This document shows, piece after piece, positions 3,241 through 43,024 of a stretch of 56,557 nt of DNA; position 1 is the stretch's first letter, and every line of letters begins with the position of its first letter. Location: NCBI GenBank assembly GCA_910592345.1, contig CAJVPI010000090.1, forward strand, positions 1 to 56,557, in the 5' to 3' direction. The notes beneath the pieces were generated by a model that did not search any database, had not been told where the DNA came from, and was given only the letters and a program-made list of their open reading frames with translations. The stretch comes from Paraglomus brasilianum (taxonomy: Eukaryota). The position numbers and the translations under genes are program-made.

Positions 3241-5456
3241 TTAATAGAGCTTACCCTTCAGATATTGATGTTTTAATTGGCACAATTGGGATGTTTCTGG
3301 GAGAGTGACTTCAACATCTGGAAGGCTGCATGAAATGCTAGCTCCTCTAAGAAGTTCCTTCAATTTGATTTTCTTATTGCCTGCTAAGCAGAAAAGATTG
3401 AGGCGCAGTGCCCAGAATTGAGCATTAAAATCTTCCCACTGCCGCCAATGCATTGGCTCTTCATAGTTGAGCATCTCTTGCCAAAAGATCATCTCATGTT
3501 CATTGGAGTTGCGAACAAGTGCACTTGTCCATATGTAAGGTATTTGGATTTGGTATTCCTTACTTGTTGTGTTATACAGGACTAGATTAAGTATCCCCCT
3601 TGAACTAAGCTCCTCATAGGTGGTAAATTCCTTGCCAACATTGATTGAATCAGTTTTTAGAACTGGCAAGCCCAATATGGCTTTTGCAAGAGTTTTGGTC
3701 AACCAATTTGAGTAATGGGTTAACTTGTAGTCATCCAGGAGCTGGATTTTGATGGCATTCATGATTTCTGAGAGATCAATATCATAAGGATTTCTCAATA
3801 TACCCAAAAGAAGGTGAAGTCATTCATAGAAATATTCCAAGGTTCTAACATGACCTCCAATATCTCCAATGCAAAGTTGATAATACTCATTGAGATGGGC
3901 ATAGTTTTCATCAAGTTTGATGGCTTTGCCAATTTTGATTGCATCTTTATTCTCAAGGAGAGGTAATGGGAGACGAAGTGATTTGTGCATAGACTCTGTA
4001 ATATAATGCTCCAAGGGTCCTTCAATTGTTCCAGCCAGAATAGGAATTAAAAAAATATTTGGAGGTGATGCACACAGTGTTCCTCCAATGGTGTTTATGA
4101 GTTTCTTACATGCCTCCTTGCTCAAGGCATGCAATTTGTTAAACTCATCGATGTCAATAACTACAACCAGCAGACCAGGAGCTTCATTAGAAGTTGTTAC
4201 TTGTTCCTTGATATCAGCATAGATAACCTCAAGGGCTGTGTCCAGAGTAAGTTTTGAAATGTCTCCAATCTGGCAGACACCACGGAATTTGGTAAAAGTG
4301 TAATTATCCCCAGTTTTATACTGAGGTCGGAAGTACTCAAATAGAATACATAGCACAAAAGATGACAGGGCACCAAGTTGCATATCTATATCATCAGCTG
4401 GGGATCCATTTCCATAGGTGGTGTTAATAACAATCATATTCTTGAAAGCATTTTTGAATTCATCATTAGAGCTGTTGGCACGTTGCAAGAGCATCTTCTC
4501 AATCTCATCAAGAAATCTGCTTTTCCCTGTTCCAGGCCCACCAGCCAAGACAGGGATGGGATGAAGTTTCTTATCACCTTCCTTGCGGCATTTAAATCTG
4601 TCCTGGACTCCGTTTCGGGCCAATATTGGGTCACCATCCCAGAGGGTGCCAATAGTGGTTTCTCGTCCACAGAGCTCAAAGATTTTACCGAAGGATTTAA
4701 CAAGCTGAAAAAATCAATTAGGCTTTGGCTGAAGAAGCTAAAATGTACAATCAAAAAATTAACAAAGCGGAGAAAAGACGCACACGGTTCCGGCCACGAT
4801 TAAAATCGAATCTTCGCATCCAGTTATACACCGAGCCACTATTGTTCCAGTTAGGTGCTAAAGTCAATGGATAAAAGATTAAACGGGGATGAGCAATTAG
4901 AAATGACGAACATGATCCGGCATCATAAATAAAAATGTCACTCACCAGTAGTGCCAGCTGGAAGGACAGAAGGTGATTAACGGGACGGGAGGCAAATGAG
5001 CGAGAAACGTCGATTTGGTATGGTTGGTAGTGGGAAAGCGGATAGATGATATGGATGGAATCGCAACGAGTACGGATAGATGGAATGAATAAATGGCGCA
5101 GTTACGAATATCCAAAGTGCAGTCGAAGTGACAAACGTTGTGACAGAGAGGAATGCGGAGGCGGACAAGATCCAGCACCATAAATAAAAATATAACTCGT
5201 GAAAATATTCGGAATGCAGTCATGGTATTTACACCCTTAACTCTCTTCTATGTATGAAACCCATATTGCTACGTCTACTCTACCCTAAGTACACACTACT
5301 CTACGTCCCCAATGCCCGAGTCACAAAGTCGTTACCTGCAGAACCTTGTTGGAGGCGGAGCTTCTCCAATTCCAACTTTTTCTGCTCGAGCTCCAACAGA
5401 CGATCAAGGTTTTCTTGAGTTTGTAAATCTTGGGGAAGTTTCTTGAAATCTTCCAT
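3241..5456 (-). pseudogene. Crinkler-like P-loop NTPase gene, spliced, frameshifted and cut off by the transposon end
   Basis: Walker A GGPGTGKS and Walker B-like VIDIDEFN in ORF 3820..4623. The reading frame shifts between 4434..4754, 3820..4623 and 3241..3807. Upstream coiled-coil exon from ATG 5456 (MEDFKKLPQDLQ...) ends in CAG|GTAACG. Confidence 0.65.
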
Positions 5457-15419: not shown

Positions 15420-18400
15420 TCATGGTTCTTCCTTAGGTACTATCAGTTGCCTATATTGCTTAATACTGTCACCTTCAAATTTCCCGACCCTGCCATTCTC
15501 GCACACCCAAATCTCGTTGCAAATCGAATCAATAAATCGCTCGTCATGGGATACAAGGATGACACCGCCCTTGAATTCTTTCAAGGCTGCTATTAGGGCA
15601 TCCATAGAATCCATGTCAAGATGATTTGTCGGCTATTAAATTGGGCAGGAATCGTAATTAGTGAACAAGTATGATAACACAAGATACAACAAAATATTAT
15701 CAATTACCTCGTCCAAAATCAAAATGTGGGGGTTCTGCAATCCTAAACATGCAAATGCTACTCTGCTTTTTTGTCCGCCGGACAATGTGTCCAATCGTTG
15801 TAACGCTGTCATTCCGGTAATGCCGAAACTTCCTAATTGCCTTCTATACTCTTCCTCACTTTTACCTGGCCAAGTTTTAGACATGAAACCGACTGCAGTC
15901 GTGTCTAGATCGAGTTGATCCACATGGTGCTGCATAAACAAAGCGAACCGTAACCGTCCATGACGGTGAACAAATCCTTTGAGAGGCTGAAGCATACCAG
16001 TCAAAAGCTTCAGTAGAGTTGATTTTCCCGCTCCGTTTGGACCAACTACAGCTATGCGTGAATCCAATTGTACCGATAGGTTGACGTCAGACAAAATCAG
16101 ATCTCCCGACTTGTATCCAAATGCGACATCATCTAACTGAAGAATAGGCGGACTAATAGGATCAGGGTTAGGGAATCTGAAAGTCACTGAACTTTCCACT
16201 TCGGGAGGTTCTATCACCGGCAATTTCTCCAACAATTTTAATTTGCTCTGAGCCTGTGGTCCTCTCTTTGCATTATATCTCCAACGATCTATGAAGTCTT
16301 GTAGATGTTGTCTGTATTGCATCTGGGCCTCATACTCACGCTGTTGGTTCTTGCGTCGCTCTTCTTTAGTCGCATAAAACTGCGTAAAATTCCCCCTGTA
16401 GAAATCAACACGTTCAGAATGCTGATGTAAAATATCGGTCGCAACCTCATCAAGAAATTCTCTGTCATGAGACACTACAAGTAGTGTACTTGGCCAATTT
16501 TTTAAATAATGTTCTAACCAGGCAACAGCAGGAATATCCAACATATTTGTAGGCTCGTCTAGTAGTAACAAATCAGGTCGACAGAATAATGCTCGAGCTA
16601 ACGCAAGCCGCATGCGCCAACCTCCAGAGAACGTTTTTGTTGGATCACGTATTCGCTCTTCTGGAAATCCTAACCCGGAGAGTATAGAAGCAGCACGAGA
16701 TTCTGCTTTGTCGCTCTCAATGTCAGCTAATTTCTGATAAACCTCCTGCAACTGCGCATTCGCGTCCTCTTTCTCCTTCTCTATATCTTCTGAAGTTTGG
16801 TTTTCGTCTGGAACCATTTTTTCGAGTTTAGCAAGCATAGTATTTAATCTTTTTTCTTCTCCGAGAAGATGTTCTCTCCAGATATCCGCACTCAATACAG
16901 CTTCAATGGCAAGAGTATCATCGCCAACCATTTCTTGTTCGACATGTAGAATGCTAATGTGAGTCGGGACAGTTAATTCTCGTCTCGAAAGTGTTCTCAG
17001 CAACGTTGAATTATGAGTGACAGTCAAATCTTCCAATAGCACAAGTTGATTGCCATCCACTTGGAATCCATAATAAGGCATGTGACCAATTTCTTCTATC
17101 TGGAAACCCCACATATATTCTGAAGGATGGAATATTTCAAATAAACCTCTATCAAGCGAAATAAGATCATATCGCATAGAAGGTAGTGTAAACAATTCAC
17201 TACCATATATAACACAATGCCAATGACGCTTGTGATCGTTGCAATCATAACAACTCTCTCTATCAGGTTTGTCATTAAGAAGACCACAGAAACTTGCCAA
17301 TCGTTTAATGGATTTTACCACGTCCCAGCTAGAAACAGTCAACTTGACATAGTGTCCAATAGATGAATCCCAACAGCGCAAACTATCGCCATCCACAAGA
17401 CCGGCTAGAAGCGGTTTTCGAACAGTTTCAAGGCAGTCTGTCATTAGAGCATTTGGAATATTCTTATTATGAAGTAAGCCAAGTTCGCTAAGCACCTTTC
17501 TGAACACATTGCACTGACGCTTTCCTGTTCCGCGATCGAAGCTCACATATGTATAAACGTCGTCGGTCGTATGTACACAATTCCATTGCAAGATGGTACA
17601 CGCTTCTTCTACGTAATAAATTAAAGAACGAGTTTCATTTCTAGGGAGCATCAAACAATCTGAACCCTTCAATCCTCTACTTATCCAAAAGCCAATCATC
17701 CAAGCAGTATAAGAGATATATTCAGAGGTCGGATAGCGGCCAGTTATAGATTCCACTATACCAGCTAGTCTGTCTTGTCCTTGAAAATGGACTATCTTTG
17801 GGCGATACATATATGAATATTTTTGCACTTCCGGGCAAACTTTTAAAAAGTCTTCCAGAGCCACTTCCCATATAAAATCCGGCGACAACCTGTTAGATTT
17901 ACGTATTTTCTCCTGGTGAGCAGCCGCTTGCGCTACAAATTTATTCCGGTATAGTTTTCCGGCGCCATATGAAAAATCTTCTTTCCGCGGGACAATTAAA
18001 TTTGTCTTTTGAACATACTCATACCAATGAAGAATCACTCCTGGGTGCGCTGATGCAAAATTTTCGCTCGTGACAATACGGGGTCTTCCCCCAAATTTAA
18101 GTACAAGAATGTGTTTGTCATTACATTCGAACGGCTTGCCTGGACTTCCCAGTTCTGGAATCACTTTATACATAGGTCCTACTCCGCGAGAAAGACTTAG
18201 GACACGCCTCGGCGCGCCATCATTGCCTTGTAGGTTATCGTCGATGAGAATGTCTTCAACTCTTTTAGAGGAACCATCTGACATAAGGAGCTTAGTTCCG
18301 AGCCCAAAACATTTCTGCAAACATTGTATGTATGCAAATTGCGTTGACGGAGCACGTATAAGAAAAAGAGAGGAGGAAAGTTAGTGAATGGTAAGTTGCG

Positions 18401-37597: not shown

Positions 37598-39839
37598 TAA
37601 TAAGATATGAAAAGTGAAAGGCCGACAGGGCCAGGCAGAAACTGAAGATGACTTTAAAAATTGTTTAAATTCTGGGTAATGCACCCGAAAAAAAATCAGA
37701 CTGCGTTTTGATGTGTGCAGTGCAAGGAGGAGAATGCATTAATTCAGTGAAGATGCTGTGGGAGTTGGGTAAAATAATCTATATTTTATTTTTTTTTTCA
37801 ATTAATTCGCATGAATGATTATAAGCCATCAACCAACAAAATCCTCTCTTTGTAAAGTCAACCATCTTTACCCTTTCCCCCTCATACAACTACTATTTAC
37901 TCTTAATTTAATTTTATTGGGAGTGGGGTGTTAATTTGGTCTTTCTGTTCTGTACTATTTTTTTTCCCCCTTTACGTTTACTTCAACTTCCCTTTAATTC
38001 CTCTCCTTTTATAAGATTCAAGTGAATAGAACAAGGATGCAAAATGCAATGTTGATATTTCCGTGAAATAATAGTAAAAAAAGCTATGCAGGTTAGAGCT
38101 GTCAAATGACATATCTCTGACAATATATATAGAAATCTGACACATTTGTAAATGCGCACGAAACTGGCAGATGATTATTATTGTTATTATACGATATAAT
38201 GGCACGTATACACGCCCACCGTCCTAACAAAAGTGTCTTGTCTTATATGGATCAAATAATTTGATATTTGAGTTTTAAATTAGTGTGGTAAATTCAGTCA
38301 TTTAGCATTTCAGGATGCATTCCATGAATTCGGAGGTTAAGATGTCTCGATGATAGAAAACGGTCCTGTAACTCTAAATTCTGCTACAAAAAGTACATTC
38401 TTCACCTTTTTCATATACATGCATATGCAGCATGTAACCTACTATCGATTGTTAACCCGCCTTGTTCTATTTATTCTTTACTTTCTAATTTTGTCTGCAT
38501 AACTCGTAGCCATTTTTTGGTCAATTATGCTGGAGAATGCGAGAGGACCGTTATGGTTTGCTTCCGAGACGGGGTAGTTTCAGCCGAACACATTGGTTAC
38601 ACATCATAAGCCGAAAAAGGGCACAATATTTCCATGATTGACAACCGGGAAAAAAAAAAGTGGTTCAATCTTGTCGACTCTGTAAAAGCGAGCGACATAT
38701 CGGAAGTTTTGATAGCTAACAATGTACAGTACATATTAATATTAATATGTTACGCAAATTTTGTCCTTCTTGACTTTGTTCTCGTTACACAAATGAAGTT
38801 TTCGCACCGAACGAATGAAAACTTTTTGTAGATATTCCATTCATAATGGCAGAGGGAAATCGCTATACTGATACATTAGCACGTACATCTCTTCTAAATT
38901 AATGTGGGAAACGAGTATACCATGTTGCAAGCTACAACTTTTTGCATTGTCCTCATGCTATTACTAATACTACTAATACTAAGCCTAATTAGTTTACTAA
39001 ACACCCCCTTTTTATTCACTGCAGGGCAGTAGACCCTCTTTTAGTAAATACCCGGATTATATTAACTCTTTGCGTTACTATTACATTGACACAATTCCGT
39101 TGATTTTTAGCCAAGAAGTTTATTCGGAAAAAGATAGCCCCAGAACGGAGGAAACGGCCCACTTTTATTAACCCAATCGGGCGAAAACTTATATATGGCA
39201 TACGTCATTTACGCCATTTTCGAGTTGGAAAGAAAGGTTAGCAAAGTAATGATTGCCAAATGAGCTGATGCTAATCACAAAGAAACAATACTTGTACCAA
39301 CAATAGGTACAAAGGCCATTTTAGATTTCCGTGGAAGGTTTGATTCTAGCTTGGCTAAGGATAAGACCCACAAATCAGGAGTGTTGTTCTGTAGAAAGAG
39401 ATTAGTCAAGCATTTTTGCAAAGAGTAACTCATTCTATTACTCCTTGTAAAATCGTCAACGTAGAAAGTTCCATTGATAGATTGACAGATAGTTGTCGTG
39501 TCCTAATAATATTCTCGTATTGTTTTTTATAAACTACTGCTTATATTTTATCTTTTCTCATTCATAAGCCTATAGTATAGTTCTCACCTCCTTACTCAAC
39601 CTGTATTGCCAGCATCGATCTCTTTCGTTACTGAACAACTACCGATTATTGGAGCTGCAATTCGCGCAAATGTAGATGGAACTAATGCTAGGTTCTTTTA
39701 CGAGACGAGGCCTTATTGTCATGTTTCCGGTCTATAATAATAATAACTGTAAATAATTATTATGTTCTCGTGCTACCGTATTAGTTTATCGTTATCTAAA
39801 TATGGGTTGGCTATCCGATTTCTCACTTTAACTTTCATC

Positions 39840-42800
39840 ATGTCAAAAATAATCGGCAATGCTCGTCAAATTTTCACAAAGAGACCGTTCAGTTCTCTCC
39901 TTACATCCAGCAGACATGCTAGAAACTGTTCAACCCTGTTTCGTCATAGAAGCTTGAACCTTGTTAAGCAAGCAAATGTTGCAGACGTGTTCATACCGAA
40001 AAATAAAGCGAGCTACTTGACAATAAGATGTTATAACGGAAATATACCACCGGGTATAAATCAATCAACTGTGACAAATTAAGAATTATATACACTGCAT
40101 ACGATGCTAAAATCTGTAAACTAATCGCCCTTGTGCTGTCGACGGCTTTGTTCTAACAGGACAATTCCGTATGACATCGAACGCGATAGGACAAAAAGGA
40201 TCATCGGCTCTTGAGCAATTTGGATATGATCTGACCAAATTAGCAGCCGAAGGAAAGCTCGATCCTGTTATTGGAAGAGAAGAAGAGATCAGGAGAACAA
40301 TACAAGGTGTAGGATTAGATTAAGATATATGATATTATAAACAAAGAATGATCACAATAACTTTACTGACCATATTGCTCATTTATTTTATTATACAATT
40401 AGTGTAAGTATTACTCATATCGAATTGATTCTCCTCAATATACGGTTATTTACCCCCACAACATATCACCAGGTTAGCACGAAGAACAAAAAACAATCCT
40501 GTACTTATTGGAGAAGCGGGAGTCGGAAAAACTGCCATAGTAGAAGGCCTAGCCCAGCGCATAGTTAATGCAGAAGTACCAGAGAGCATCAAAGACAAAA
40601 AAGTGATCGCGCTGGATCTCGGTTTAATCGTTGCAGGGACTAAATTCAGGGGAGAATTTGAAGATAGGCTTAAAGGGATACTGCAGGAAGTCCAAGAAGC
40701 AGAAGGAAAGCTGATTTTATTTATTGATGAATTACATAACTTATTGGGGTTAGGAAGGGGGGAGGGAAGCATGGATGCCGGCAACCTATTGAAACCAGCC
40801 TTGGCTAGAGGAACGTTAAGATGTTGTGGCGCTACGACGATTGATGAATATCGCAAATATATTGAGAAAGACCCCGCACTGGCAAGGAGATTTCAATCGG
40901 TAATGATAACTGAGCCGACGGTCGAGGATACGGTATCTATTTTACGGGGGTTGAAAGAAAAATATGAAGTACATCATGGTGTTCGCATCGGTGATAACGC
41001 TCTTGTTGCTGCTGCGACATATTCTCATCGGTACGTCGCAGACAGATTCCTTCCAGACAAAGCTATTGATTTAGTCGATGAGGCATGCTCTAAATTGAGA
41101 TTACAGCAGGAGAGCAAACCAGAAGTCCTTGAGAACCTAGATAGGCAAATCATCACTCTTAAAATCGAGTTGGAATCACTGCGTAAGGAAGTGGATCCAA
41201 TCTCACAAGAAAGGAGGGAAAAGATTCAAAAGGAACTCGAGGCCAAAACACGCGAATCAGAGAGATTGAGCGCGCTTTGGCAAGAAGAAAGGGCCAAGTT
41301 GGAAGAAATGAAGAGGATAAAGTCTCAGTTAGAACAAGCGCGTATTGAATTAGAAGCGGCTCAACGAAGTGGCAACTTTACTCGTGCAAGCGAACTAGCC
41401 TACGGCGTTATCCCAGAACTAGAGAAAAAGCTTCCTGCGGACACTGGTGAGGATGAGGCGCCTGAATCACTAATTCACGAACATGTTACCGCTGAGGATA
41501 TTGCAATGGTCGTATCTCGGATGACTGGTATTCCTATTCACAATTTAATGAGAAGTGAAAGAGATCGGTTACTTCACATGGAAGAGAAGTTGAAACAGAG
41601 AGTAGTTGGTCAGGACGAAGCTGTCGCAGCCGTGTCTGAAGCGGTAAGACTGAGCCGGGCAGGATTGCAAAGTCCAACTAGACCTATTGCCTCTTTCTTA
41701 TTCCTGGGTCCTACCGGTGTGGGTAAGACGGAGTTATGCAAGGCTATCGCAGAGTTTTTGTTTAATACAGAATCAGCTATCGTCAGAATTGATATGAGCG
41801 AGTATATGGAGAAGTAAGCATGGGATGCATTGTTCAGACGATGAAGATAGTACAAAAAGATTAGTTTGTTTGTTAACGCTGTTATTATTACTAGGTTCGC
41901 GGTAACGCGACTTGTCGGTGCACCACCTGGGTACATTGGATATGATGAAGGAGGACAATTGACAGAAGCAGTCAGAAGGAAACCTTTTGCTGTAGTGCTA
42001 CTGGACGAAATGGAGAAAGCGCACAGAGGTATTTAAATTCAGACAAAAAAATGTATACAGTTTGACATAGCAATTAAACAGTGGGAGTCGATTATTTTGG
42101 AATATAGACGTATCGAATTTGTTACTCCAGGTGTTGGATGATGGATACATAACCGATTCGCAAGGGCGAAAGGTATTGTTATTGTAGTAACGTTACTTGT
42201 CAACTATTGATAAAATGATTCCTCTTTAATTTCTGTTTTTAACTTTTGAAAAAAAAAAAATCCCAAGGTTGATTTCAGGAATACTATAATAATCATGACA
42301 AGTAATCTCGGAGCCGATATTTTAGCTTCAACAACCTTGACGGGAGACGACAGCAAAGTGAGCGATTTGAGTAAAACTGCTGTGCTTGATGTAGTCAGAA
42401 GACATTTCCCTCCTGAATTTATAAATCGCATTGACAATATGGTAAGATGTTGATTAATATTTATTAAGTATGAATGTGTATTTAACCTTTACTGAATGAC
42501 AATTTTTAATAGATTATTTTCAATCGACTTTCTCGACTTGCACTGAGAGATATTGTGGATGTAAGATTAAGAGAAGTACAGCAACGACTGAGCGATAAGC
42601 ACATTACTATTGATATTGACGAGCATGCCAAGGCTTGGTTGGCTGATAAGGGTTATGATACAGTATATGGTACGTGTTCAATATGTCTAAGAAATGACGG
42701 TAAGACTTTGTTTAATAATCGATTAATGCAACTAACTTCTTTGTTTGTAGGTGCTCGTCCTCTCAACCGTTTGATCCATAAGAAGATTCTCAATCCATTA

Positions 42801-43024
42801 GCATTATGTTTGATTGAGGTTAGTTTGATTCACCAACATTGGTACTTATTATTCGAATTTTCATTAGTAATGTTACTAAAAATTGCATATTCTTTCGTCA
42901 GGGATCAATCAAGGGTCATGAAACAGCGCTGGTGCGGACAGTGAAGACAGATATCGATGAAGATATAATTGTCGAAAAGAATCATGATGTACCATTGGAT
43001 AGTACCTCAGTCGATAAATCATAA
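39840..43024 (+). CDS. HSP78: Mitochondrial ClpB-family disaggregase Hsp78, multi-exon
   Basis: R/S-rich presequence and no Clp N-domain. [57 protein letters not shown] and GARPL motifs. Confidence 0.95.

Follow-up and report, generated by a model that had tools for sequence, protein, structure and literature searches.

One-nucleotide exons have been described in the plant genes APC11, including Arabidopsis APC11 (Guo and Liu 2015, PMC4674806), and VPS55 (Yu et al. 2022, PMC8831610), and one is known among fungi in the CYP621A P450 genes of Fusarium (Nelson and Syed 2026, PMC12940212). In the basidiomycete Coprinopsis cinerea, an intron-rich fungus, long reads revealed 13 one-base exons in 13 genes, among which HSP78 could be included (PMC12230235). 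Thus, a reading of the present DNA from its sequence alone (referred to here as the sequence-only reading), which held such exons to be very rare, overstated this for intron-rich fungi. The one-base exon is a kind already known, to which HSP78 of Paraglomus brasilianum adds a case; it opens no new kind of biology, but one-base exons with both RNA support and deep conservation are few. In a literature lacking most subscription journals and supplements, we found no paper on an Hsp78 gene with a microexon or on an Hsp78 intron in Mucor.

The HSP78 exon resembles that of Fusarium CYP621A in that both lie in fungal nuclear genes, a phase-1 donor meets a phase-2 acceptor, and the middle base of a codon within a conserved motif comes from the exon. 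Besides, the Fusarium exon is supported by RNA reads and is likewise missed by gene predictors. The Fusarium exon is a G in a P450 of secondary metabolism and is confined to one genus group, whereas the exon of HSP78, the gene for a core chaperone of mitochondria, is a T and is kept across the deepest split of the Glomeromycota (arbuscular mycorrhizal fungi), probably into the Mucoromycota. As with APC11 and VPS55, deep conservation goes together with absence from reference annotations; VPS55 is also alike in the strong GTRAGT donor following the exon, and APC11 in its loss from some lineages (monocots) through intron loss. However, these plant exons belong to other genes and another kingdom, and their proof came from RT-PCR and reporters, whereas ours comes from assembled contigs and conservation.

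The window, i.e., the whole stretch of 56,557 nucleotides that was analyzed, carries the HSP78 coding span on the plus strand from the annotated start to the stop (39840 to 43023; 10 exons and 807 codons, including the one-base exon). The upstream exon (40160 to 40306) ends with a G that is the first base of the Val-121 codon, the one-base exon is the T at 40403, which is the middle base, and the downstream exon (40473 to 41813) starts G TTA GCA CGA with the third base and codes for the larger part of NBD1, the middle domain, and the first portion of NBD2. Intron A (40307 to 40402; 96 nt, phase 1) has a weak donor, GTGTAG, and the acceptor TTAG; its predicted branch point, TACTGAC (40364 to 40370), has its A at 40369, at a distance of 33 nt from the intron end, and is presumed to function as such from the fungal consensus, the score used being ad hoc. 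Intron B (40404 to 40472; 69 nt, phase 2) has the donor GTAAGT and the acceptor CCAG. T40403 is therefore flanked on both sides by complete GT-AG introns with lengths in the range of the 10 HSP78 introns (69 to 106 nt), among which only intron B has an exact GTAAGT donor. All of the coordinates given by the sequence-only reading (G40306, TACTGAC, TTAG, T40403, GTAAGT, and G40473) were right when the window was reread.

We enumerated all GT/GC-AG joins with one or two introns of at least 30 nt within 40296 to 40490. The downstream frame was open in nine joins, and the family motif QVLARR was obtained from the one-base-exon join only, which agrees with the earlier proposal that G, T, and G form a Val codon restoring the conserved motif. 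Both the frame and the conserved Val residue require T40403: a stop arises at codon 122 when the exon is skipped or intron B is retained, and at codon 126 when intron A is retained. The claim that skipping frameshifts the gene thus needs a correction: no long shifted frame follows, since the stop comes at the very next codon.

The motif YAG-N-GTRAGT by itself is weak evidence for the exon; it occurs four times in the window against 1.34 expected, and four matches were reached in 5 of 100 shuffles. Upstream of the other three matches, at 4243, 16334, and 47697, AT-rich sequence resembling an intron is missing (GC, 0.33 to 0.43 versus 0.23), and they were rejected as one-base exons. At 16334 to 16343 on the minus strand, the donor-like motif lies within an open frame that we take to resemble an ABC-F type ATPase, and this context speaks against a one-base exon there.

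Contigs from 4 of 24 candidate runs (X1, X2, X5, and X24) were compared with the window. In both X1 (depth, 3.0) and X2 (depth, 5.6), a contig joins 40306 to 40473 with a single T between, as the earlier prediction for the cDNA had it; its shorter side covers 86 letters in X1 and 128 in X2. The T-containing joint thus occurs in two of the four runs, both of low depth, from one study, and only guessed to be RNA; nevertheless, the same two runs also skip six further GT-AG introns of HSP78, which indicates that these contigs derive from spliced RNA. Scattered base differences from the window amount to a few percent, and the source of the two runs is a related strain or sister species of the window's organism. 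X5 and X24 had no joint at the site and are evidence neither way. Among the contig joints listed for the four runs, where rare forms are hidden or dropped by assembly, there was no direct skip from 40306 to 40473 without the T and no partly spliced intermediate at the site. Nor was there a joint from 40306 to 40478, the junction of the public gene model, which the sequence-only reading had named as one that would refute its proposal.

The same layout, which the sequence-only reading had suggested looking for in related species, was found in other fungi. A scan of metagenome contigs with a degenerate pattern, in which a phase-2 acceptor precedes L[AS]RRTKNNP, gave four loci (L001 to L004), and the pattern scan of prokaryote genomes gave no matches. 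Three of the four loci (L002, L003, and L004) are fungal HSP78, and all three contain AG/T/GTAAGT. L002 hardly differs from the window and lends no evolutionarily independent support. L003 and L004 match Hsp78 of Rhizophagus irregularis at 94 to 97% over the conserved exons and carry the one-base exon T at L003:137 and L004:763 (minus strand). Both have CAAG/GT at the upstream exon end, the branch motif GACTAAC at the matching place, AG/T/GTAAGT, and CAG/A before the Leu codon; their codon is GTA, with A as the third base and Val retained. Introns A and B are 93 and 73 nt long in L003 and 77 and 62 nt long in L004, and the sequence has otherwise diverged from the window. In the four sequences, i.e., the window and the three loci, donor B is invariably GTAAGT, and donor A departs from the consensus in each (GTGTAG, GTGTAG, GTTAAC, and GTTAAT). 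Since this layout is common to Paraglomus and Rhizophagus-like loci, which are separated by the deepest split among arbuscular mycorrhizal fungi, the one-base exon is probably as old as their last common ancestor, as judged by sequence comparison.

The remaining locus, L001, was dropped because it is clpB from a bacterium, shifted in frame by one base, and not an intron-bearing gene; several one-base frameshifts occur at L001:901 to 942 (plus strand), likely as sequencing errors. In L002, the match to the window ends at EKYEVHHG and is followed by different ClpB-like residues (L002:1 to 140, minus strand, the 3' end of the gene fragment), and the contig is probably chimeric. By eye, a U-rich stretch between the branch point and the acceptor of intron A (40378 to 40391, plus strand) appeared similar in the window, L003, and L004. 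Out of 500 shuffles, 8 (L003) and 84 (L004) were as similar to the window in intron A, branch point included, and 356 and 315, respectively, in intron B; the resemblance of the U-rich stretch was thus not robust, with a mixed result against shuffles.

Taken with the spliced contigs, these homologous loci, rather than the short motif, make it virtually certain that T40403 of P. brasilianum HSP78 is genuinely an exon of one base, as the sequence-only reading had proposed.

That reading had also expected gene predictors to miss the exon, and public gene models proved to be widely broken at codon 121. The public model of this gene, P0001 (805 amino acids), is the best protein match (100% identity); our joined exons correspond to P0001 plus Val-Leu, whereas P0001 itself uses a single intron to the AG at 40477, reads IQARR, and lacks the two residues. 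We examined the best 120 of 7,999 protein matches, each at least 784 amino acids long, with genera assigned to lineages as we presume them to belong. Among these 120, all 5 models from Glomeromycota and 25 of the 37 from Mucoromycota had a broken motif, compared with 0 of 24 models of the Mortierella group, 0 of 6 of Zoopagomycota, 1 of 10 of chytrids or blastoclads, and 0 of 3 of ascomycetes; the motif was intact in all 32 homologues that are unnamed and mostly derived from assemblies. The totals, 30 of 42 versus 1 of 43 other fungi, give a Fisher p of 3e-12, which is overstated because the species are related and annotation pipelines are shared. In pattern controls at four other intron sites, 35 to 39 of the 42 models were intact at three sites and 18 at the fourth, where the region is variable and the pattern probably too strict. 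In an alignment control, which replaced these pattern controls, an indel was found near codon 121 in 19 of the 42 models, compared with 0, 0, 1, 5, 0, and 0 at six downstream intron sites of HSP78; the codon 72 site is not informative because it lies in the variable N terminus, and counts of at least 19 were also reached in two linker regions.

The type of error fits a missing middle base. The residue after Gln or Glu has a codon starting with G in all 26 readable broken models (Gly in 15), Arg or Ser (AG plus one base) stands before Leu in 8, Gly replaces Val in 7, and 2 run on into a shifted frame. In the Mucor cluster (15 of its 25 members listed), the marks are Gly after Glu, Arg before Leu, and Leu, Ile, or Lys followed by Val before Leu, the last of which is as expected if AG-T were read through and donor B used. 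The correct join is present in none of nine named R. irregularis entries, some of which cut the gene into two, and three R. irregularis models of 130 amino acids (P0122 to P0124) end at the T and the stop of a retained intron B. The one-base exon thus explains why HSP78 is mismodeled at one and the same codon, and the excess of broken models suggests, indirectly, that the exon probably reaches into the Mucorales; where the motif is intact in Mucoromycota (12 models), the gene may be annotated correctly or may have lost introns. On balance, it is likely that the exon is shared across the Glomeromycota and probably the Mucoromycota. Besides, a chytrid model (P0069, Spizellomyces sp.) has a 22-residue insert, with Arg at its end, after the same Val; this would fit the retention of a phase-2 intron of 66 nt where intron B lies and hints that intron B may be older.

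We consider it very probable that the one-base exon is spliced into the HSP78 mRNA, likely constitutively as judged from assembled contigs, which lose rare forms, and that it is a by-product of two old introns lying one base apart. Introns A and B would be removed one after the other. Both are short, and each could be recognized across its own length, so that under such intron definition the size of the exon would be nearly irrelevant. The pairing site of U1 spans positions -3 to +6 of a donor. The acceptor AG of intron A would accordingly fall within the U1 footprint of donor B, so that two spliceosomes could hardly assemble together and removal would be sequential. Since the last two bases are AG in the upstream exon as well as in intron A, the U1 site AGT/GTAAGT is identical before and after removal of intron A, and either order would work. 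The strong inner signals (branch point A and donor B) and the weak outer donor would favor inclusion over a skip; the latter would take an intron of 166 nt, and those of HSP78 do not exceed 106 nt. As skipping or retention leads to a stop by codon 122 to 126, selection on the inner signals would be expected without any regulatory role. Sequential removal of introns has been proposed for APC11 by Guo and Liu (PMC4674806), and intron definition is described as predominant in fungi in another report (PMC2397502). Because its introns are short, HSP78 is a compact system in which to study how a spliceosome deals with an acceptor overlapping the following donor and in what order the two introns are removed.

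It is doubtful, in our estimation, that the exon is real but regulated, with condition-dependent skipping or retention (e.g., without heat stress) leading to nonsense-mediated decay and tuning Hsp78 levels. The early stop from skipping and from each retention and the long preservation of the layout would suit such control, and the 130-amino-acid R. irregularis models could mirror real partly spliced RNA, although they may equally well be predictor artifacts. Precedents appear in two reports, a microexon switch in Xlr2 of the fungus Trichoderma (PMC11121469) and plant VPS55 transcripts both with and without the one-nucleotide exon (PMC8831610). However, no skipped or retained form occurred at the site among the contig joints of the four low-depth runs, and no conserved intronic enhancer emerged, the similarity of intron A (branch point included) being mixed against shuffles. 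Moreover, the motif is clean in all models of the Mortierella group, Zoopagomycota, and ascomycetes, which suggests that the exon is probably dispensable for Hsp78 control. The regulatory switch raised by the sequence-only reading therefore found no support, given the contig joints and the dominance of intron definition in fungi. Similarly unlikely is a bolder combination, in which the exon came from the ancestor of arbuscular mycorrhizal fungi and Mucorales (more than 400 million years ago), was lost in the Mortierella lineage, and was kept as a splicing checkpoint; the conserved weak outer donor would then let temperature or stress shift the HSP78 mRNA between a form for the complete chaperone and one destined for decay. 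Taken without the switch, the proposed age by itself is likely.

It is highly improbable that the T in the contigs comes from elsewhere than 40403, either by U-insertion RNA editing at one junction or by a one-base strain difference at an exon end. A single T is indeed not uniquely mappable, and the runs are from another strain than the window; nevertheless, AG/T/GTAAGT and the branch motif are conserved amid the diverged introns of L003 and L004, and editing would need neither. Besides, the exon ends of the window recur in L002, which was assembled independently, and the window is therefore free of sequencing error there. Finally, with one intron, the frame is kept only if a 166-nt intron runs to the AG at 40477, giving a protein without Val-Leu; this join is used by the public annotation, but it is hardly credible, because X1 and X2 both resume at 40473 and not at 40478, L003 and L004 have TTG TCA at the downstream exon start and hence no matching AG, and it would delete two residues found in ClpB chains and in all 32 unnamed homologues.

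The HSP78 protein itself, read through the one-base exon, is ordinary. Its identity, as named by the sequence-only reading, is borne out by many close protein matches carrying the name hsp78 and by the domains of P0001 above the cutoff (PF00004, PF17871, PF07724, and PF10431), i.e., two AAA+ modules, a lid, and D2-small, as in the Hsp78/ClpB/Hsp104 disaggregases. P0001 matches ClpB chains with an E value of 1.5e-259, and E. coli-type ClpB chains read QVLQRR; the two residues without a counterpart in P0001 are present in ClpB chains of solved structure. Unlike ClpB, the window protein lacks Clp_N (PF02861), which the same domain search found in the bacterial P0097 but not in P0001, and it has a basic N-terminal extension (12 Arg or Lys versus 1 Asp or Glu in the first 70 residues), as expected of mitochondrial Hsp78. 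The product is thus presumably a mitochondrial Hsp78 of the ClpB family, and matrix import and disaggregase activity would follow from family membership.

At its 5' end, the X2 contig with the one-base exon retains intron 1 (40054 to 40159), lacks 16 bases at 39780 to 39795, and apparently splices out 39806 to 39881 (GT..AG, 76 nt), which contains the annotated start codon at 39840. An RNA of this form could not encode the annotated presequence, and the next in-frame ATG is at 40171, shortly before the first AAA+ domain. This single contig (depth, 5.6) possibly represents a presequence-less isoform, or else it is partly spliced or merged. In the window, a further in-frame ATG is present at 39762 (plus strand), 26 codons upstream of the annotated start.
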